Shown one piece after another: positions 5,004-51,179 of a stretch of DNA of 64,000 nucleotides. Numbering within the stretch: the first letter of the stretch is position 1; each line of letters begins with the position of its first letter. A program made the translations under genes and the position numbers. This DNA is from Desulfomonilaceae bacterium (GTDB lineage: Bacteria > Desulfobacterota > Desulfomonilia > Desulfomonilales > Desulfomonilaceae): the NCBI GenBank assembly GCA_035506215.1, contig DATJPW010000191.1, positions 5,689 through 69,688 of the forward strand, written 5' to 3'. Below the pieces are notes generated by a model that had not been told where the DNA came from, made no database searches, and was given only the letters and a program-made list of their open reading frames with translations.

Positions 5004-6155
5004 GTGGGGAGGGAAATCCCTTTTGTGAGGATTTTCATCCCCATGCGTGTTTTTGCGGAGCCTATGCCGCGAGATTGCTGCCAACAGTTGGGGTCAGCTT
5101 GTTCGCGTCACGGTTTGCCGGAACCGGATTCAAGAATGCCGGGTGACTCATTTTCTCTCCGCATCGCTCGGGGCTCGGAAAATCACCACAAAGAAGTTTT
5201 ATTGCCTTGTTGGGGAGGGAACCGGAGAGGGCGTTCTTATAAAGACGTCCTCTCCAGCAATTTTTCGAAAATTTTATTGGTCGCAGTGGTTCTATCGCTT
5301 TGCTCTTGCACGCTCATGAGTCAGTCTCCTTATTTGACCCAGAATACCCAGGTGCCTATTCTTGAAGACGGTTGCGGGCTGGTCACGTCGCTCAACGGCC
5401 AGGTGCCGTATCAGAGATGGCGGGTCCCTCCTTGGGACATTGACATGCAATACGTGTGGCTCGTGGGCAATTACGACTTCAGAAAATACGACCGGGTTGA
5501 GATGATCCTTTACTTTCACGGCACACAGCCCAAGGACTATTACCCGGTTTTTCGCAAAGAACTTGAACAGCTTGCGCTGAAGCGACCGGACCAGCCATTT
5601 GTGTTCGTGGGTATGGTAGACAAACCTCAAATAGAGCCTGAATGCGGAAATCAAGACCGTTGGGGCATCTTGGCGCCCAAAAGAGGTGAACCGCCGGAGG
5701 CTCTGTTCCAAGTACTGAACCAGATTTTCAGGGCTTTTCGGACAAGATTCCCTAACATCAGGAAAGACAATACTCACATTGTGCTGTCAGGCTTCTCCGG
5801 TGGAGGAAAGGTGTTAAGCGCAATAGGCAACTGGCTGGCCCGCACCGACAAAGAAGATCCGTACGCAGAGGTTTTTAGGTCCCGATTGAGCAAAATCGTC
5901 TATTTTGATTGCTGGTTCGACAAAGATGTGGTCGAAACCGTACCCGCATTACTGGAAAGCAACCCGGACATGAAGATAGTGGGAACGGTCCACATGAAAA
6001 AGCCTCTTGAGCACGCCTCCATGCTCGCCAACAAATTTGGAATGAAAGCGGACAAGCAAAAACGCGAATTGGTCGGCCTGGACGGCAGACTAACCATCTA
6101 TCGGAACGATTCCCACTGGGAAGCCATGATCGGCAGACTCAAAGAAGCCCTCTGA
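5004..6155 (+). CDS. putative lipoprotein with alpha/beta-hydrolase-like serine motif (start uncertain)
   Basis: GFSGGG nucleophile-elbow-like motif (IVLSGFSGGGKV) and a lipobox-like VVLSLCSC. The first ~85 codons of the track ORF cover repeat copy 3 and look non-coding, so the real start is probably around 5271-5319 (TTG 5277, GTG 5286 or ATG 5319). Confidence 0.5.
   Translation: MGREIPFVRIFIPMRVFAEPMPRDCCQQLGSACSRHGLPEPDSRMPGDSFSLRIARGSENHHKEVLLPCWGGNRRGRSYKDVLSSNFSKILLVAVVLSLCSCTLMSQSPYLTQNTQVPILEDGCGLVTSLNGQVPYQRWRVPPWDIDMQYVWLVGNYDFRKYDRVEMILYFHGTQPKDYYPVFRKELEQLALKRPDQPFVFVGMVDKPQIEPECGNQDRWGILAPKRGEPPEALFQVLNQIFRAFRTRFPNIRKDNTHIVLSGFSGGGKVLSAIGNWLARTDKEDPYAEVFRSRLSKIVYFDCWFDKDVVETVPALLESNPDMKIVGTVHMKKPLEHASMLANKFGMKADKQKRELVGLDGRLTIYRNDSHWEAMIGRLKEAL
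5207..5257 (-). repeat. REP/MITE-like palindromic element, copy 3 (reverse orientation, diverged loop)
   Basis: GGGGAGGGAACCGGAGAGGGCGTTCTTATAAAGACGTCCTCTCCAG. Same architecture as the family, but the centre is TTATAA instead of TTGCAA. Confidence 0.7.
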
Positions 6156-6214: not shown

Positions 6215-6328
6215 TCGTCTCTGCCGAGGGCCGCGGCACATCTCGTCGTAACGAACCGTGATCACGACCGCTTTTCAGATCAAGGTTCTCCGGCCGCGGA
6301 TATCATTTCGCATGAGGAGGCATTTGCC

Positions 6329-7090
6329 GTGAAAAACAAAATAATGATCGGCCTCTGGCGGTTTATGTTGAATGTTCCCCCATCGCTGTGGGAGAAACGG
6401 ACTCTTAAGGCAAAACAGAAATTTGCAACAGAATTTGGCTTCATGTCTGGTGAGCATCGATCAGTTCACCATTATGTGGTCAGGGAACTTCCGTATTACG
6501 GAAAGCCGTTACATCCGGAAAGCATCTCCGACAAATTGGGGCTCCCAATTGACCGGGTGAACGCCATCCTGGACGACCTGCAAGAGCATATGACATTTCT
6601 GTTCAGAAACGACCAAGGAGAAGTTGTTTGGGCCTACCCTGTAACTGTTGATAAAACGCCTCATCAAGTGACTTTTAACACCGGTGAACAATTGTACGCG
6701 GCCTGAGCTGTTGACGCGTTTGCGACGCCCTTCGTGCAAGGGCGATTGAGGCAAGAACACATTTCGGTTATCGTCAATACTGAATGCGCTCATTGCGCTC
6801 AACCCATGGAAATCGTTATCGACAGCGAGCTGCAATTCAGCGTGAAGCAGGAAGGCTGCGAGCCGATCGTCTTTATACCTGACGTAGATTTGTTTAAGCT
6901 TGAAGACGAAAGCATCATCAATGCGTTCTGAAACGAGAGCGTCTTCTTCTGGTCAGAAGAACATGCAAAAGATGATCGTAGAAAAGGACAGAGAGTGCGA
7001 GGAGCATACCTAACGGCTACGCAGATGGCACGGGGCACCAAGATAATTCAGAGCGCAATTTTCGGCTTTGACGCTGCAGTCCTTCCCTGA
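6329..7090 (+). CDS. MerB-like organomercurial (alkylmercury) lyase family protein with two predicted selenocysteines (TGA 6704-6706 and TGA 6929-6931 read as Sec)
   Basis: One continuous frame from GTG 6329 (GAGGAGG 8 nt upstream) to TGA 7088-7090, interrupted only by two TGA codons. Read-through gives LYAA-U-AVDAFATPF (MerB LYAWC96ALD99TLIFPAL) and NAF-U-NESVFFWSEEHA (MerB SFC159CHVHFFASVPTAEDWA), plus a MerB-like wHTH N-terminus and ECAHC (MerB SSHC117). A hairpin follows each TGA. Confidence 0.7.
6726..6744 (+). promoter_or_regulatory. SECIS-like hairpin 1
   Basis: 7-bp stem CGCCCTT/AAGGGCG with loop CGUGC. The stem starts 19 nt after TGA 6704-6706. Confidence 0.5.
6939..6966 (+). promoter_or_regulatory. 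SECIS-like hairpin 2
   Basis: Upper 7-bp stem TTCTTCT/AGAAGAA (6944-6950/6955-6961) with loop GGUC. Lower 4-bp stem 6939-6942/6963-6966 across a C-C mismatch. The first loop G is at +23 from the U of UGA, as I recall for E. coli fdhF. Confidence 0.55.
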
Positions 7091-7256: not shown

Positions 7257-7820
7257 ATGTACACCATCGGAAAATTGGCCAAGAAGTTCGGGCTCTCGCG
7301 AAGTACTCTTTTGTACTATGATTCCATAGGATTGCTCAAACCCAACTCGCATACTCAGGCGGGTTACAGACACTACTCCGAAGATGACGCGAAGCGTCTG
7401 GAGCAAATCTGCCTATATCGCCGCGTCGGATTATCGCTCAAAAACATTGCGAGAGCGCTGGATTTTCCAGAAAACCGCCTCACAACTGTTCTGGAAAAGA
7501 GACTTCAAGAACTCAACGAGGACATACAACAACTGCGCGAACAGCAACGATTCATTGTGGGGATATTGAAAAACAGCGACCTATCTAGGAACATCGGGGT
7601 GATGAACAAAGATACGTGGACCTCCATACTGGCAGCGTCCGGCTTCACCGAAGAAGATATGCGGCGGTGGCACATCGACTTTGAGCGCCTTTCACCACGA
7701 AAGCATTTAGAATTTCTGCAATTTTTGTGTATTCCTGAAACGGAGATCGGGATCATCCGGTCGTGGTCTTCATCCGCTGGGAACGAAAGAGCGCATCATT
7801 CGAGTCAGTTTTGCGACTAA
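7257..7820 (+). CDS. MerR-family transcriptional regulator
   Basis: N-terminal MerR HTH (YTIGKLAKKFGLSRSTLLYYDSIGLL...GYRHYSEDD) and a coiled-coil (LQELNEDIQQLREQQ). No cysteines where the Hg-binding triad of MerR would sit. Confidence 0.8.
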   Translation: MYTIGKLAKKFGLSRSTLLYYDSIGLLKPNSHTQAGYRHYSEDDAKRLEQICLYRRVGLSLKNIARALDFPENRLTTVLEKRLQELNEDIQQLREQQRFIVGILKNSDLSRNIGVMNKDTWTSILAASGFTEEDMRRWHIDFERLSPRKHLEFLQFLCIPETEIGIIRSWSSSAGNERAHHSSQFCD

Positions 7821-16997: not shown

Positions 16998-18620
16998 CTA
17001 TATTCCTCGTCGCGGGAGCGGGGGGTCTCCTTCGACGACCAGAATAGCCATACCGGTAGCCAAGTGCCACTCAATATGGCAATGAAAGAACCAGAACCCG
17101 GGATTATCGGCCTCCCACTGCACGACAGCCCAAGACTTGCGGGGTATGCTGAGAGTATCTTTTTGGATGGGATCTCTCTCGTTAAGGGCTTGCCCGTTAT
17201 AGTTGCCTGCGTCTTCGGCTCCCACCCCCAGCACGTGGAAGTAGTGTCCGTGCAGATGAAATGGATGACTCATCTTTGATTGATTGTTAATAACCAGGCG
17301 AACGACATCCCCTTGCTTGAGTCTCATTTGTGTGACAGGTGGGTCCGGCGGATTCCGGTCCGCTGTCAACGGTTTCTTGGGCAACTCGAAGATCTGTCCG
17401 TTGACCATCCACTTGTACGGCATCATCGACCCTGTGAGTAGGAGGAGCTTGTTCGTCGTTGGCCCCGTAATCTTCCGGAGCGCATACGGCTTGAGGTCCC
17501 CCAACTTGAGAGACGCGCCCCAGGTGGCTTTTGTCTGGGGCAGCGCTTGAGGAGCGCCTTTGTATCTTAGCACCGCAAGAGCATGGTCTTCTCTATTCTC
17601 CTCCAGAGTTTTGGCTCGAATCCAATAATTAGCCGCGGGCCGGTCTGCGTTCACGACAACATCGTATCGCTCCCCAACGTCGATGATCAGGTTGTTCACA
17701 TCGAGGGGCCTGGTCAGTGCGCCGTCAGTGGCAATGACGGACAGTTTGTGTTCGTCAATGGCAAATCGGAATGCGTAGGTGGATGAGGCATTAATGATCC
17801 GAAATCGAATTCGATCCTTCGCTTTGACTTCATAAGTTTCCAGAGGCCCTTCAGAGCTTGAATCAAATCTTCCCTTACCGTTGATCAAGGCCGATTCAAA
17901 CGGCACGTCACCAACATCGGGCATACCTTCCGAGTCCATGTCCATCATCATTTTCGCACCTTTTTTGTCGGTAGCCGTGCCCATGTCCATTTTCATACCT
18001 TTTTGCTCAGAGGTCATGCGCATGTACGCACCCCTTTTCAGGTTCGCCAAAATCTGTTCCGCGGGGATGTGGAACCAATCGTTGATCATGATGATGCGAT
18101 CGTAATCGTAGTCGTTCTTATATGGATCGTTGTTTTCTTCGATGATTAAAGGGCCGAACAACCCGTCGGAGTACTGGAGTCCGGCGTGAGAGTGATACCA
18201 ATGAGTCCCGGCCGGATAAGCCCTGAATCTGTATGTGTAGCAATCGCGGGGTTGAATGGCGGCCTGCGAGATCCTCTCCACACCATCCATAAACCAGGTA
18301 CCGTTCTGGTGCATGCCGTGCCAGTGTATCGTGGTTGGTTGCGGCAAGTTGTTGCACAAGGTAACTGCGATCTCCTCACCTTCCTTGGCACGTATCGTGG
18401 GACCTGGAAACATGCCGTTTATCGCCAGGATGCCTCCTTCTTTTGGCTTTGAGTCTGGCCATTTTGCAGGCTTCAGTATCCCCGTTTTGAATTCAAATTG
18501 TCTCTTACCTTCCTGTGCCGCCATGACGAGCGGTAAGGTCCCGCGCCGTATGAGCGCTACGCCGGTCAGACCTGCCGCTACGATAAGGAACTTCCTCCTT
18601 GTCAGAGTAATTGCGCCCAT
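16998..18620 (-). CDS. multicopper oxidase (Tat-exported, CueO/laccase-like)
   Basis: Copper-site motifs HWHGMHQ, HSHAGLQ, HPFHLHGH and HCHIEWHLATGM. Twin-arginine leader TRRKFLIVAAG. Confidence 0.9.
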   Translation of the reverse strand: MGAITLTRRKFLIVAAGLTGVALIRRGTLPLVMAAQEGKRQFEFKTGILKPAKWPDSKPKEGGILAINGMFPGPTIRAKEGEEIAVTLCNNLPQPTTIHWHGMHQNGTWFMDGVERISQAAIQPRDCYTYRFRAYPAGTHWYHSHAGLQYSDGLFGPLIIEENNDPYKNDYDYDRIIMINDWFHIPAEQILANLKRGAYMRMTSEQKGMKMDMGTATDKKGAKMMMDMDSEGMPDVGDVPFESALINGKGRFDSSSEGPLETYEVKAKDRIRFRIINASSTYAFRFAIDEHKLSVIATDGALTRPLDVNNLIIDVGERYDVVVNADRPAANYWIRAKTLEENREDHALAVLRYKGAPQALPQTKATWGASLKLGDLKPYALRKITGPTTNKLLLLTGSMMPYKWMVNGQIFELPKKPLTADRNPPDPPVTQMRLKQGDVVRLVINNQSKMSHPFHLHGHYFHVLGVGAEDAGNYNGQALNERDPIQKDTLSIPRKSWAVVQWEADNPGFWFFHCHIEWHLATGMAILVVEGDPPLPRRGI

Positions 18621-20285: not shown

Positions 20286-20764
20286 ATGAACAGAAGAGAA
20301 TTCTCAGAAAGTGGAGGGCCTGCCAGCGGCGATCCTGTCACAGGTCCGGACAATTTAGCAAAGGCTGAGGAGAAAAAAGCCGATCATTTGATCAAACTGG
20401 TGTTCTGCGCTAGACGTCATCCCAGTATGTCGCGTAGCGAATTCCAACAGTACTGGTTAAACCATCACGGACCTTTGTTCCAGAAATTCGCTAGACCTAC
20501 CGGGCAGTTCGTTACGTGCAAAGCCACACCATCGATTCGCCATTGAACGAGAACCTCAAGAAATCAAGAGGATTGTCCGAGGAGCACGACGGAGTAGGCG
20601 AAATCTGGTGGCGGTCCGAACAGGACTTTCTTGCGGCAATTGCTTCTCCGGAAGGTCAGAAACTGCGCGCGATATTCATTGAAGACGAAAGCAAATTCAT
20701 CGACTTGAGTGCTTCGTCAGCATTTTTCACTGTCGAGCACGTTCTCGTTGACCGCGGCACTTGA
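20286..20764 (+). pseudogene. EthD-family protein gene interrupted by a frameshift
   Basis: The N-terminal half (KLVFCARRHPSMSRSEFQQYWLNHHGPLFQKFA) is in the frame ending at 20546. The C-terminal half (RYVQSHT...DGVGEIWWRSEQDFLAAIASPEG...) is in the -1 frame, open from 20495 to 20764. Confidence 0.6.
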
Positions 20765-20876
20765 CACGGACCGTTTCTTTTCATTCGGAACGGTATGGCG
20801 GAAAAGCCGACGTGAAAGCCTCTTTTTCTGCGGAAACAGCTCTGACTTCAGATCTCCAATAGCAGGCTTTCTGAAC

Positions 20877-21695
20877 ATGATTCAAATCGAGCACGCTGGT
20901 GAGGTTACAAAGTTCAGGTTGGCCCGCACTCTTTTCGGCCGAGGCTTGTATTTTACCGCGGCATATCTGGTGGACGGCCTCATGGTGGACACCGGATGCG
21001 CGTATACGGTCCGTGAACTGACAGACGCGTTGAAGGACTCGAAAATACACACCATTGTCAACACGCATAGCCATGAAGATCACGTGGGAGCCAACGCAGC
21101 GCTGCACGCGCAATTCGGTACACGAGTCCTTGCTCACCAACATGCTTTGCCTATCATGGAAGAGCCAGGGAAAGTGCGCCTCCGGCCATATCAGCGTGTC
21201 ATGTGGGGTTACCCGGAACCCTGCCGAGCCGAATCCGTCGGCGACTCGGTGGAGACGGAACACCACCTTTTCCGAATCATATATACGCCAGGCCACAGTC
21301 CGGACCACATATCCCTCTTCGAGCCTGATCGCGGATGGCTGTTCACGGGCGACGCATACGTAGGTGGCCGAGACCGGGCCCTACGGCTTGATTACAATGT
21401 CTGGCAGATCATCGATTCTTTGAAGAAACTGGCCTCACTTGACCCGCAGGTCATCTATGCCGGAAGTGGTTCCATTAGACGCGACGCTCGAAAGGAATTG
21501 GAGGCTAAAATTCAGTACTTGGAAAAGACCGGAGAACTGGTCGTGGCGTTGCACCGAAAAGGTTGGAGCAGACGCCGCATCCGTCTGGAAGTTCTGGGCC
21601 GCGAAATGCCGATAGCGCTCTATACCCTTGGCCATTTCAGCGGGAAGAACCTTATACGCTCGTATATAGAGGACTACGAAGTCGTCTGTTTCTGA
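20877..21695 (+). CDS. MBL-fold metallo-hydrolase
   Basis: THSHEDHVGAN (HxHxDH) motif; start at ATG 20877. Confidence 0.75.
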   Translation: MIQIEHAGEVTKFRLARTLFGRGLYFTAAYLVDGLMVDTGCAYTVRELTDALKDSKIHTIVNTHSHEDHVGANAALHAQFGTRVLAHQHALPIMEEPGKVRLRPYQRVMWGYPEPCRAESVGDSVETEHHLFRIIYTPGHSPDHISLFEPDRGWLFTGDAYVGGRDRALRLDYNVWQIIDSLKKLASLDPQVIYAGSGSIRRDARKELEAKIQYLEKTGELVVALHRKGWSRRRIRLEVLGREMPIALYTLGHFSGKNLIRSYIEDYEVVCF

Positions 21696-22087
21696 GGGGG
21701 ACTCACAATAACCCTGTACAAAGCCATTCCCACCATCAGGTCCCCAACGAGAATCGCAATATCCGGAAACATCGACTCGATCAGCCAGGCCAATGGTTGC
21801 TCCCTGGGACTAACTTTGATCCACCCCTCGAGGGTGGACACAATGGTCAGGTCAGTCATCATTATGATGCCCAGATACGCCAAGAAGCTATTGAGCAATA
21901 AGGCCCACAAGGCCGTCTTTCTGAAAAGAAACAGAATGCTGACCAGGACCAGGTCGGCGGAGGCAAATAGAGTAGCCCAGAAATTGGTCAAATTGGCCAG
22001 GGGAGGATGTATCCTATCGTGAAGAATGAATGCTCCAATGGCAAAGCCGACGAGCGCGATCCACAATTGCACGCGCTGTGTGTTCAT
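21674..22087 (-). CDS. hypothetical integral membrane protein
   Basis: 137 aa with about 4 hydrophobic helices; GAGGTGG upstream of the ATG. Confidence 0.45.
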   Translation of the reverse strand: MNTQRVQLWIALVGFAIGAFILHDRIHPPLANLTNFWATLFASADLVLVSILFLFRKTALWALLLNSFLAYLGIIMMTDLTIVSTLEGWIKVSPREQPLAWLIESMFPDIAILVGDLMVGMALYRVIVSPPQKQTTS

Positions 22088-47986: not shown

Positions 47987-49918
47987 TCAACTAGGTAGGG
48001 TAGGAAGGATCTCTTCACCGGTGCCGTCCACGTTATAGCCCCCCAGGGCCAGCACTTTCTTCTTGAAGCTATCGCCTTTCATTACTTCCAGCAGCACTCG
48101 AATTTTCTCATCCTGAAAGAACTCCTCAGGAATTACCAAATCGTACTGCTCGGTGGCCACGGGGATAAAATCCAACCCAAGGGCGCGGGCCGCGGCCAGC
48201 ACACCCATACCGACGTCGGCCACACCGGATAAAACAGCCACTGCCACGGATGTGTGGGTATACTCTTCGATTTCGTAACCCTTGATCAGCGCGGGATCCA
48301 GTCCAAGACAATCCAAATGATAATCCAGCAATACCCTCGTTCCCGCGCCCGCCTGACGGTTGATGAATGTGACATCATTACGGGTGAGATCTTCGAAAGA
48401 TTGAATGGACTTGGGGTTCCCCTTTCGCACGATGAATCCCTGCTCCCTCATCACACCGTGAATCATCTTCACCGGGACATCAGGAATATATCTGCGAATA
48501 TATGACCAGTTGTACTCACCGGTTTCGACATCCAATAGATGCGAAGGAGCGACATGAGCTGCCAGGTTTTTCAGCGCCATGAGACCACCCAGACTGCCCA
48601 CATGACTCGAAGAGAGAAAGACATTGTGAGGGATCAGCTCGTCAGCCAGCAGGTCGAGGGTCAAGTCGTGGCTCCCAATGACAACCACCGTGCGATTTAT
48701 CTGATCGGCAGGTCTGAGAAGCTCCACATGCACCGCCGCTGCCCGCTCTATTCCTTCACTCCGTGCCGGTATGCGGAGAACTCCATCCGCTCTCGTTAAC
48801 GTAGCAATAGACCCCGCGCCTCTTGGAAGCGGGGCCGCAATAACTCGATCACCGACTTTTCCCAATCTGACACGCAGGAATTCTTCCCGACCCAGCTTGG
48901 ACGGTATCTTCCTGGCCGTGATGGCTGCCACGGTGGCCCGTAACCCGCTCGGAAGCCCTTGCATGGCCCGAAGCAACGGCGACCCAAAAACTTCAAAAGA
49001 AAAGACCGCTGATACCGGATAACCGGGATTCCCCATGACCGGCTTGTCCCCGATAATTCCGAGGATGGTCGGCTTGCCGGGCATCATCGCCACGCCGTGG
49101 ACCAGCACTTCGCCAAGTTCCTGTATGGCGGCTGCCGTGTAATCCTCGCTGCCCGCGGAAGAACCCGCATTTATAACTATTAAGTGTGCGTCGGAACGTA
49201 CCGCGTCGAGTAGCGCGGCCCTGATAGCCTCATACTCATCCGGCACGATCGGCCGACGCAATGCAACGCCTCCACTATCTTCGATCAGACCGGCCAGGAT
49301 GGAGGAATTATACTCGACGACTTCACCCGCGTTCGGCTCCCGCTCGATCAACGTCTCCGGCGGAACGAGTTCGGACCCGGTAGGAATGAGCACCACCTGG
49401 GGTTTCCGTACCACGTCCACCATTATGACACCGCCTGCCAGAAGTGCTCCCACTTCGTATGAAGTGACAACATGCCGAGCGGGAAGTATCATTTCCGTTG
49501 CGACAAAATCTTCACCCACACGTCTGGCGTTCTGCCAAGGGACCAGCGCTTGATCGATCTCGAAGGTCTCCTCGTCCACAAAATTCACATTCTCTATCAT
49601 TATCACGGCATTGGTACCGGGAGGCATTGGGCGGCCGGTGTTGACGGGCCAGGCGTCTTGTCCGATCCTTAAAGACACAAACCTATCAGGTCCGGCGCCA
49701 AACGTATTCTCTGCCGGCACTGCGAATCCATCCATCGCTGCTGTGTGAAAATGTGGGGAGGAAAGGCGAGCATAGACCGGGGTCGCTGTTACCCGACCTT
49801 TGGCCTCGGTGACCGGCACACTCTCAGATCCGGGAAAGCTTTTCTTGCTCAGTCGATTCAAAAAGACTGCCAAAGCTTCTTCCGGCGACTTCATGTCCAG
49901 ATATATGTTCCTTCTCAA
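47987..49918 (-). CDS. MoeA-like molybdopterin molybdotransferase fused to a C-terminal periplasmic-binding-protein-like domain
   Basis: MoeA N-terminal and MoCF domains (AAMDGFAV; SAGSEDY) plus a ~230-aa extension. The start is more likely ATG 49894 than TTG 49918. Confidence 0.7.
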   Translation of the reverse strand: MRRNIYLDMKSPEEALAVFLNRLSKKSFPGSESVPVTEAKGRVTATPVYARLSSPHFHTAAMDGFAVPAENTFGAGPDRFVSLRIGQDAWPVNTGRPMPPGTNAVIMIENVNFVDEETFEIDQALVPWQNARRVGEDFVATEMILPARHVVTSYEVGALLAGGVIMVDVVRKPQVVLIPTGSELVPPETLIEREPNAGEVVEYNSSILAGLIEDSGGVALRRPIVPDEYEAIRAALLDAVRSDAHLIVINAGSSAGSEDYTAAAIQELGEVLVHGVAMMPGKPTILGIIGDKPVMGNPGYPVSAVFSFEVFGSPLLRAMQGLPSGLRATVAAITARKIPSKLGREEFLRVRLGKVGDRVIAAPLPRGAGSIATLTRADGVLRIPARSEGIERAAAVHVELLRPADQINRTVVVIGSHDLTLDLLADELIPHNVFLSSSHVGSLGGLMALKNLAAHVAPSHLLDVETGEYNWSYIRRYIPDVPVKMIHGVMREQGFIVRKGNPKSIQSFEDLTRNDVTFINRQAGAGTRVLLDYHLDCLGLDPALIKGYEIEEYTHTSVAVAVLSGVADVGMGVLAAARALGLDFIPVATEQYDLVIPEEFFQDEKIRVLLEVMKGDSFKKKVLALGGYNVDGTGEEILPTLPS

Positions 49919-51179
49919 GACTCCTCCCTATCCAGCGGGCAAATAGATTAACGGTGACCTCCTCGCCCTTGTACAAGCCCTCGCAATCAGGTTCAATCGT
50001 AATGACCCCGTCAGCCCGTACCACTGATGAGATCATTCCTGACTTGGCCGGCATCGGGACCGCGATGATATCCTCGGCTCGCCTGAGGAGCCGAACGCGC
50101 ACAAAATCCATTCGACCTTCTCTCGAAGGAATGTTCCTGCTCAACAACGCCCGGCAACTGGGTCGAAGAAACGGCTGCAGCACTCCTTCCCCTTCGAGGC
50201 GGCGAATCAGCGGAATTATGAACTGTTCGAAACACATCATTGCAGAAACAGGATGCCCGGGCAGCCCCGCAATAGGCTGCCGACCGACTCGCGCTAATAT
50301 CAGTGGCTTCCCCGGCGATAGGGAAACGCCATGAACGAGGATTTCCGAATCCTCATGAGATCCGATAGCTTCAATCACATGGTCCCGGCTTCCCATGGAA
50401 CTACCGCCGGAGATGAGCACTAGGTCGGCTGACTGCATGGCCTGCTTGATCAGGGAAGAAAGCGCGTCCAGCCTGTCCGGAGCGACACCTATCCAGACAG
50501 GATTCGCATGGGCCTCCTGAATCATCGAGGTGATAGTATAGCGATTCACGTCCCGCATGCAGCCGGGAGGCGGTTGTTGGTCGATAGGAACGATTTCATC
50601 ACCTGAACTTATGACTGCCACTGCGGGTTTTCTGTGGACTTTAACGTTCTGCTTTCCCATCGCCGCCAACAGACCAAGGTCTTGAGGTCTCAGGCGATTG
50701 CCGGTCTCAAGAAGAGTTTCACCTTTCTTGAAATCCTCGCCACGCCGGACCACATTGTCGAACGGCGGTACGGCCTTAAATACCTCGAGAGTGTCGCGGC
50801 CGAGTTCCTCAGCGTGCTCGATCATGACAACCGCATCGGAATTCGAAGGCATTGCTCCGCCGGTCCAAATGCGGACTGCTTCCCCCTTTTTCAATTTGAT
50901 ATTCAGGATTTCCCCCATGGGGACTTCACCAATGATTCGGAAAAGAGCGGGCGCGCCTTCACCGGCCCCGAAAGTATCCATCGAGCGTACAGCGAAGCCA
51001 TCCATGGTTGAGCGGTCGAATCCCGGCATGTCCTCGGCTGCCTTCACAGACTCCGCGAGGACTCGAAACAATCCATCGCGCATTGATATTTGTTCCACTT
51101 CCAGGGGCCCGAACAGTTTGAGCAGCTCCAGGGCCTGATGGGGGGTAAGCACCTTCAGAAAAGGCTTCAGCATTGGCAT
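49824..51179 (-). CDS. moeA: molybdopterin molybdotransferase MoeA
   Basis: STMDGFAV, SGGSSMGSRDH and a MoeA domain IV ending ...EEVTVNL. It has a ~40-aa tail that overlaps the downstream paralogue. Confidence 0.8.
   Translation of the reverse strand: MPMLKPFLKVLTPHQALELLKLFGPLEVEQISMRDGLFRVLAESVKAAEDMPGFDRSTMDGFAVRSMDTFGAGEGAPALFRIIGEVPMGEILNIKLKKGEAVRIWTGGAMPSNSDAVVMIEHAEELGRDTLEVFKAVPPFDNVVRRGEDFKKGETLLETGNRLRPQDLGLLAAMGKQNVKVHRKPAVAVISSGDEIVPIDQQPPPGCMRDVNRYTITSMIQEAHANPVWIGVAPDRLDALSSLIKQAMQSADLVLISGGSSMGSRDHVIEAIGSHEDSEILVHGVSLSPGKPLILARVGRQPIAGLPGHPVSAMMCFEQFIIPLIRRLEGEGVLQPFLRPSCRALLSRNIPSREGRMDFVRVRLLRRAEDIIAVPMPAKSGMISSVVRADGVITIEPDCEGLYKGEEVTVNLFARWIGRSLEKEHISGHEVAGRSFGSLFESTEQEKLSRI

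Follow-up and report, generated by a model that had tools for sequence, protein, structure and literature searches.

Does a MerB-like gene interrupted by two in-frame TGA codons still encode an intact protein, with selenocysteine (Sec, U) at both catalytic thiol positions of an organomercurial lyase? This question was raised by a locus in a 64-kb stretch of DNA (64,000 nucleotides, hereafter the window) of contig DATJPW010000191.1 from a Desulfomonilaceae bacterium; all positions are in window numbering. An earlier note, made from the letters alone, had proposed a single 253-residue frame at 6329-7090 that runs through TGA codons at 6704 and 6929. This frame is present, and so are the peptide motifs quoted for it. 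It starts at GTG 6329, closes at TGA 7088-7090 and is open except for TGAs at 6704-6706 (codon 126) and 6929-6931 (codon 201). We conclude that its product is very probably a genuine double-Sec selenoprotein of the MerB superfamily. The features of the gene are as follows, the counts referring to the window and 80 aligned relatives (see below):

6314..6320, plus strand: Shine-Dalgarno-like GAGGAGG, 8 nt upstream of the GTG start, read from the sequence.
6329..7090, plus strand: coding sequence of the 253-residue MerB-superfamily selenoprotein, based on the frame, the Pfam MerB match, the MerB alignment and the TGAs in 81/81.
6704..6706, plus strand: UGA-1, Sec126, in the MerB Cys96 column by alignment; TGA in 81/81, Cys in relatives of the Cys/Sec (C/U) type.
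6713..6715, plus strand: GAC, Asp129, by alignment the equivalent of the proton donor Asp99 of MerB; Asp in 81/81 (GAC in 66, GAT in 15).
6785..6796, plus strand: C153-A-H-C156 motif, with C153 in the MerB Cys117 column; C153 in 81/81, C156 in 93%, role inferred.
6929..6931, plus strand: UGA-2, Sec201, in the MerB Cys159 column by alignment; TGA in 81/81, Cys in the database proteins P0026 and P0070.

The 762-nt gene, both TGAs included, is identical across three independent metagenome assemblies, and the in-frame TGAs are therefore not sequencing errors. The prediction that gene callers would miss it was correct: the identical copies are publicly annotated as a 125-residue open reading frame (ORF), in one assembly with a 65-residue ORF as well, and other members of the family are mistranslated with Trp. 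Homologues share with the window protein an N-terminal start of the type MKNK(L/I)M(L/I)GLWR.

The earlier note had claimed homology to MerB over the whole length, with the two TGAs at the positions of the catalytic thiols Cys96 and Cys159 and the equivalent of Asp99 retained. For hidden Markov model and alignment searches, U was read as C in the window protein. Pfam MerB (PF03243) matched residues 107-234 with 51.8 bits (cut-off 27, E 9.9e-14), and in a phmmer search of PDB sequences MerB chains were the sole significant matches. In the phmmer alignment, LYAA-U-AVD falls on LYAW-C96-ALD99 and AF-U-NESVFFWS on SF-C159-CHVHFFAS, while C153 aligns to Cys117. Thus Sec126, Asp129 and Sec201, all three invariant in the 81 sequences, fill the columns of Cys96, Asp99 and Cys159; catalytic Cys columns lying elsewhere, which the note had named as refuting its proposal, were not found. 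The structure was assessed with an AF2 model of P0003, a homologue 61% identical to the window protein that has the U/U form but is written W/W in the database, built from a 21-sequence alignment (pLDDT 89.2, pTM 0.87). MerB and MerB2 chains were the top 11 PDB matches of this model and the only significant ones (probability 1.0, E ~1e-10), with target-normalised TM scores of 0.60-0.80 (0.71-0.80 for ten crystal-structure chains). The claimed homology over the whole length held up in these comparisons. Compared with MerB, the family has about 40 extra N-terminal residues, forming a beta-hairpin and a helix, and the conserved C153-x-x-C156.

When one genome was scanned for each GTDB species, 471 genomes proved to encode a relative. 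A codon-aware alignment was made of the window gene and the best 80 of these 471 relatives (53-68% identity; 81 sequences), whose hosts are mostly Syntrophales/Smithellaceae, Desulfobacterales, Desulfomonilaceae and other Desulfobacterota, with some Nitrospirota and others. TGA was found at both columns in 81 of the 81 sequences, with no other internal stop or frameshift; an extra 'internal' TGA in one locus (L052) was an artefact of an N-terminally truncated match combined with a length cut-off. The terminal stops, in contrast, vary (TGA in 42 sequences, TAA in 23, TAG in 16). The ratio of nonsynonymous to synonymous changes per site (pN/pS) was 0.37 before TGA-1, 0.39 between the TGAs and 0.31 after TGA-2, with synonymous sites near saturation. 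The three segments being equally constrained, what follows each TGA is evolving in the manner of translated protein, which bears out the note's observation that family-typical sequence continues beyond both codons.

If the UGA codons are recoded, each should be followed by a selenocysteine insertion sequence (SECIS). Hairpins had been proposed at 6726-6744 and 6939-6966, and their stems, loops and mismatch were found as described:

6726..6744, plus strand: SECIS 1, 7-bp stem CGCCCUU/AAGGGCG with loop CGUGC, the loop 26 nt after UGA-1; -12.2 kcal/mol.
6939..6966, plus strand: SECIS 2, lower stem GCGU/AUGC, 1x1 C/C mismatch, 7-bp upper stem UUCUUCU/AGAAGAA and loop GGUC; -11.3 kcal/mol.

Both satisfy all published criteria for bacterial SECIS elements, namely a loop of 3-9 nt, an upper stem of 4-16 bp, a G in the first two loop positions, a distance of 16-37 nt from the UGA and a minimum free energy <= -7.5 kcal/mol (PMC13188914, Fig. 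2). The GGUC loop of SECIS 2 lies at +23..+26 from UGA-2 (spacing 19 nt). The note had placed its first G at +23 as in E. coli fdhF; the position is right for the window, but in the fdhF SECIS, the sequence of which was verified against 5,419 genomes, the apical loop GGUC lies at +22..+25. When the window was folded alone, the hairpins were only modestly more stable than shuffled sequences (z -0.5 to -2.2), and the case for the SECIS elements consequently rests on their conservation across the 81 sequences. Standard pairs occupied 93.8% of the cells for SECIS 1 and 98.8% for SECIS 2, versus 32-59% and 39-66%, respectively, with slid 3' partners. Compensatory changes were also found, from G-C to U-A in SECIS 1 (6 sequences) and from U-A to C-G in SECIS 2 (13 sequences), along with wobble-compatible changes.

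Since the stems are coding, overlapping the codons for Thr-Pro-Phe-Val-Gln-Gly-Arg (SECIS 1) and Ser-Val-Phe-Phe-Trp-Ser-Glu-Glu-His-Ala (SECIS 2), synonymous variation provides a sharper test. Stem codons are frozen in both: in SECIS 1, CCC is used in 80/81 sequences and TTC, GTG and GGG each in 81/81; in SECIS 2, TTC, TTC and GAA are each used in 81/81. Normalised synonymous entropy was 0.19 for SECIS 1 and 0.42 for SECIS 2, versus 0.83 for equally conserved residues elsewhere (Mann-Whitney p = 4e-6). A search of the window with Rfam at gathering thresholds gave no family match, although Rfam was not checked for a general bacterial SECIS model. What the comparison of sequences shows is that each UGA is recoded by its own SECIS hairpin just downstream in the coding sequence. 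In the 13 sequences with the U-A to C-G change (e.g. L013, L022, L028), Arg (CGG) stands in place of Trp208 (UGG), and in every case the next codon has changed from UCA to UCG; this pair of changes (window 6950-6955) converts the closing U-A of SECIS 2 to C-G, so that a residue change is coupled to RNA pairing.

Protein databases reflect the same two stops. A word-indexed search of 5.8 billion proteins yielded 67 relatives, which fall into three classes: about 35 are N-terminal fragments that stop precisely at ...YAA (site 1), three pass site 1 with a Cys and stop precisely at site 2, and the 'full-length' ones, nearly all from short contigs of the Joint Genome Institute (JGI), carry Trp at each of the two sites. 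A profile search run exhaustively over 1.84 billion cluster representatives gave 849 hits at E <= 0.001; most of the matches listed end at profile position 125 and several at 200. Across both searches, 115 proteins end exactly at the site-1 motif. The DNA of two Trp-containing proteins (P0041 and P0003), one of them only 35% identical to the window protein, carries in-frame stops at both positions under the standard code, which indicates that Trp at both sites is an artefact of a code that reads UGA as sense. Such artefacts in large protein databases can make selenoproteins pass as ordinary Trp-containing proteins. JGI members in the Trp form include L087:361-1125, L088:515-1273 and about 28 of the proteins P0001-P0046.

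The earlier note had also suggested looking for Cys at the same two columns in homologues, and Cys was found at one site or the other. Nine independent cluster representatives have Cys at site 1 and a stop at site 2 (P0005, P0007, P0022, P0069, P0072, P0073, P0078, P0080 and P0090), and two have Cys at site 2 (P0026 and P0070), both with Ser at site 1. No Cys/Cys member of the family was found among the top 150 representatives. Where site 1 is Gly or Glu, in more divergent relatives, the Asp is often lost too.

We considered the possibility that the gene is a decaying merB-like pseudogene in which the TGAs are inactivating nonsense mutations, as two in-frame stops and a public annotation made up of short fragments might suggest. 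Decay in related genomes had been named as a finding that would speak for this. Yet the relatives, at 53-68% identity, all retain exactly two TGAs and have acquired no further stop or frameshift; purifying selection acts equally on the segments downstream of the TGAs and on the first one; the internal stops are always TGA while the terminal ones vary; and the hairpins are conserved. Evolution of the post-TGA sequence as translated protein excludes a pseudogene, to which we give practically no credence. It is also very improbable that UGA is read as Trp or Gly through an alternative code or near-cognate read-through. The many database proteins with W at both positions would fit this idea, but under the standard code the codons of these W residues, on short contigs, are in-frame stops, and TGA is the true terminal stop in 42 of the 81 family members. 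Moreover, UGA is not known to be reassigned in Desulfobacterota or Nitrospirota, the host lineages, both positions coincide with catalytic Cys columns in which relatives do have Cys, and both are followed by SECIS-type hairpins. A third possibility, improbable though less so than these, is that the locus makes two products depending on selenium, a 125-residue winged-helix protein with a role of its own, perhaps regulatory, when selenium is scarce and the full-length enzyme when Sec-tRNA is present. UGA recoding is never fully efficient, and the N-terminal 125 residues are compact and helical/winged-helix-like in the model, with a weak likeness to MarR-type regulators. On the other hand, no evidence of a function of the fragment was found, canonical MerB has the same N-terminal domain within the enzyme, and the C/U relatives do without the first stop.

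The genomic context of the gene was then considered. It is flanked on one side by GSCFA and a 383-residue ORF and on the other by a MerR-family regulator, an MBL-fold protein, FolC and LptD. The regulator is listed as:

7257..7820, plus strand: MerR-family transcription regulator (Pfam MerR_1, MerR and MerR-DNA-bind), a member of a recurrent neighbour cluster that lies directly upstream of the gene, in the same orientation, in 17-19 other loci.

Clustering of the ORFs within 6 kb of the gene at all 81 loci revealed just two recurrent neighbours, both small regulators directly beside the gene and on the same strand. One is of the MerR family (20/81 loci including the window, directly upstream of the gene in 17) and the other of the MarR family (19/81 loci, directly upstream in 17); neither type reaches a specific NCBIfam equivalog. 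No SAO locus was seen, in that no ABC transporter, efflux or SaoC/T/D-like cluster recurred in the 81 loci. A tblastn search against 72,556 plasmids gave one weak hit only. Judged from this neighbourhood, the gene forms a unit by itself, belongs to neither a mer operon nor the SAO locus and usually comes with a regulator of its own, of the MerR or MarR type. The Sec machinery of the host is presumed from its lineage, the Thermodesulfobacteriota being among the most selenoprotein-rich bacteria (PMC13188914).

Several other observations were made on the surroundings. The 383-residue ORF directly upstream of the gene (5004-6155, plus strand) has no Pfam or NCBIfam match and does not recur at other loci. 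About 10 kb downstream of the gene lies a three-domain multicopper oxidase (16998-18620, minus strand). An ORF pair at 47987-51179 (minus strand), of the size expected for selA and selB, turned out to be two adjacent paralogues of MoeA (molybdopterin molybdenumtransferase), the downstream one of which is fused to a C-terminal PBP-like periplasmic-binding-type domain. Another MBL-fold ORF, at 20709-21695, was rejected as a further recoding candidate: it encodes an ordinary MBL-fold protein, and its extension matches no family. In this ORF (20709-22019 with the extension, plus strand), a TGA after ...EVVCF is followed by 108 in-frame codons, with no sign of recoding. Relatives of other than the U/U type adjoin S-adenosylmethionine-dependent methyltransferases (L001:9475-13092, L002, L084:1882-2724, L086:407-1897), unlike the U/U loci; these enzymes resemble TPMT/TehB in L086 and L001/L002, and UbiE/CMAS in L084. 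At L001, PhzF, GNAT acetyltransferases and an Asp/Glu racemase are further neighbours.

What might such a protein do? It is highly probable that it is an intact selenoprotein of the MerB superfamily in which both metal-ligating nucleophiles are Sec and the Asp99 equivalent is kept. SelB with Sec-tRNA(Sec) would presumably read both SECIS hairpins. Homology and the prediction of a MerB fold would place both selenolates together with the Asp at one site, where the selenolates may bind the soft metal of an organometallic substrate, R-Hg+ being the prime candidate. In the established enzymology of R831b MerB, R-Hg+ is bound through its metal, its carbon is protonated by the Asp, and the metal is retained as R-H departs. 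By analogy, Asp129 would protonate the carbon and R-H would be released, leaving the metal on the diselenolate. At neutral pH, selenolates would be completely ionised; they would also be softer ligands than thiolates and might activate the carbon-metal bond more strongly; the tighter, lower-pKa ligation by Sec could suit a trace substrate in anoxic habitats. The conserved C153/C156 pair is a candidate for metal hand-off. As to chemical precedent, a demethylation review (PMC10114901) cites a selone-based MerB mimic that cleaves methylmercury at 21 °C. By analogy with MerB, we put the chance that the protein acts as an organomercurial lyase in vivo at slightly under even. The remaining probability falls mainly on another organometal substrate, or on a binding or redox role. 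A further, rather unlikely, extension of this proposal is that the family is the missing mer-independent enzyme of anoxic sediments and groundwater by which C-Hg or other carbon-metal(loid) bonds are cleaved; it would place a diselenolate site working at trace levels in the same Desulfobacterota/Syntrophales guilds that make methylmercury.

Some of our observations do not fit easily with a recoded organomercurial lyase. The best 80 relatives are the most similar loci, which biases the aligned sample towards U/U forms. As a control, relatives with sense codons gave mixed results, which we weigh in neither direction: the hairpins are lost or weakened in L085 and in the Ser/Cys form L003, whereas hairpin 1 is kept in L001 and L084, which have TGT at site 1, and both hairpins are kept in L086. 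The presence of a hairpin is thus not perfectly coupled to that of a UGA, and the relatives concerned may be recent conversions. With GGT and TTA at sites 1 and 2, respectively, and both hairpins intact down to their synonymous positions, the L086 gene (L086:2030-2782) may have lost Sec recently, may have neofunctionalised or may reflect an assembly error. In the window (64 kb) and the flanks of 60 loci (L004-L063), no selA, selB, selC or selD was found; the window has no tRNA gene and those flanks no tRNA-Sec, though so little of each genome is covered that this is uninformative. The window protein fails the NCBIfam MerB cut-offs (61.9 versus 193 bits for NF009710 and 50.7 versus 200 bits for NF033555), no merA, merT or merP adjoins the gene in the window or recurs in the 81 loci, and the neighbouring regulators of which examples were read (window 7257-7820 and e.g. 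L004:2981-3562 and L061:9501-9950) lack cysteine and are therefore not classical thiolate Hg(II) sensors. Finally, catalytic turnover is hard to explain, because the diselenolate-Hg product should be extremely stable.

A rival reading is that the double-Sec protein has the MerB fold but is not a C-metal lyase. It might form a redox diselenide, or bind, sequester or chaperone a soft metal (Hg, Cu, Cd, Ag) with very high affinity; alternatively, it might act on a non-mercury organometal(loid) such as an organotin, organolead or organoarsenic substrate. The failure to reach the MerB equivalog cut-offs, the lack of a mer operon, the cysteine-free regulators and the poor release of Hg(II) to be expected from a diselenolate would all agree with this. 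So would the distribution of the gene, which is chromosomal, nearly absent from plasmids and widely distributed across ordinary anoxic habitats, and thus looks more like a housekeeping or stress function than like resistance to a contaminant. Haft and Gwadz, furthermore, have argued that substrates other than Hg become plausible for SaoL on account of the Sec at its metal site, and have pointed out that metals besides Hg are bound by MerB (10.1101/2022.07.06.499078). Yet the entire MerB fold is retained, which goes beyond what a mere metal site would need, and the Asp is invariant in the 81 U/U sequences while often lost in divergent relatives that have no nucleophile at site 1. An Asp that is kept with the nucleophiles and lost without them is the pattern expected of a triad acting jointly in protonolysis. 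We consider a role outside C-Hg cleavage to be a serious possibility, but on balance unlikely.

If the interpretation as a double-Sec member of the MerB superfamily is right, its MerB-type site, both ligands being Sec, would amount to a diselenolate centre for carbon-metal chemistry. The agents and the enzyme of methylmercury degradation in anoxic settings are still unsettled (PMC10114901), and the family offers a concrete, cloneable candidate for anaerobic cleavage of organomercury or of other organometals. It would escape merB surveys based on called proteins with catalytic cysteines, because gene callers truncate the gene. A corrected annotation would touch hundreds of genomes, in the public data of which the family is split into ORFs or mistranslated. 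As delineated by the genome scan, this predicted family is present in at least 471 species-level genomes, mainly of Desulfobacterota/Syntrophales with some Nitrospirota, and was previously uncatalogued. The prokaryotic selenoprotein reviews of 2022 and 2026 list one-Sec SaoL as the sole MerB-like entry, and the latter mentions that a small subset of its 119 families has 2-3 Sec. A literature search, incomplete in its coverage, for MerB, alkylmercury lyase or organomercurial lyase as a selenoprotein found nothing beyond SaoL.

How does the family compare with known systems? With canonical MerB (EC 4.99.1.2; R831b MerB, PDB 3F0P/1S6L; MerB2, PDB 5C17) it shares the fold (TM 0.74-0.80 for the model of P0003), the three active-site columns and the buried Cys117 column. 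It differs from it by a sequence identity of about 19%, by Sec in place of Cys at both nucleophiles and by a CxxC at the Cys117 column. Canonical MerB is plasmid- or transposon-borne, whereas the present family is chromosomal in anaerobes, outside a mer operon and without a MerA partner to accept Hg(II). The recoding signals resemble the SECIS of E. coli fdhF in that a hairpin with a small apical loop, with G in its first positions, lies within the coding sequence right after the UGA. The site-2 loop is the same GGUC tetraloop, one nucleotide further from the UGA, while that of site 1 is CGUGC, at 26 nt. In contrast to fdhF, one short gene has two independent SECIS elements, the stems are unrelated in sequence and there is no evident equivalent of the bulged U. 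Selenoprotein forms of HgcA/HgcB, the mercury methylation proteins, also have Sec at presumed Hg-contacting positions and occur in the same anaerobic guilds, but they differ in fold and reaction (corrinoid methyl-transfer protein) and have a single Sec in a CU motif. No linkage of the gene to hgcA/hgcB was seen in the flanks examined.

The closest precedent is SaoL, the 'selenocysteine-assisted organometallic lyase' (NCBIfam NF040728; Haft & Gwadz 2022, bioRxiv 10.1101/2022.07.06.499078), so that a MerB-like selenoprotein, with a single Sec, is already known. Like the present family, SaoL is a PF03243 protein of strict anaerobes with Sec in the MerB Cys159 column and a retained Asp; it is routinely truncated in databases at its UGA, and its function is presumed to be organometallic. 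The preprint on SaoL does not mention a two-Sec form. The window protein reached 50.2 bits against the SaoL model (cut-off 140), with a match that is N-terminal and confined to residues 64-173, and NCBIfam has no model specific to the double-Sec family. By these profile scores, the family is neither canonical MerB nor SaoL. In SaoL the only Sec belongs to a Cys-Sec (CU) dipeptide and the Cys96 column still holds Cys, whereas in the present family both columns hold Sec and Phe precedes Sec201 (motif AF-U-N). SaoL is the marker of a conserved neighbourhood of nine genes, the SAO locus, which includes an ABC transporter and an efflux pump and is found in about 52 species, Firmicutes for the most part. 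The present gene, by contrast, stands alone beside a regulator of the MerR or MarR type and occurs in at least 471 species, most of them Desulfobacterota. Differing in sequence family, in number and position of Sec, in motif, in neighbourhood and in taxonomic range, the double-Sec family is distinct from SaoL.

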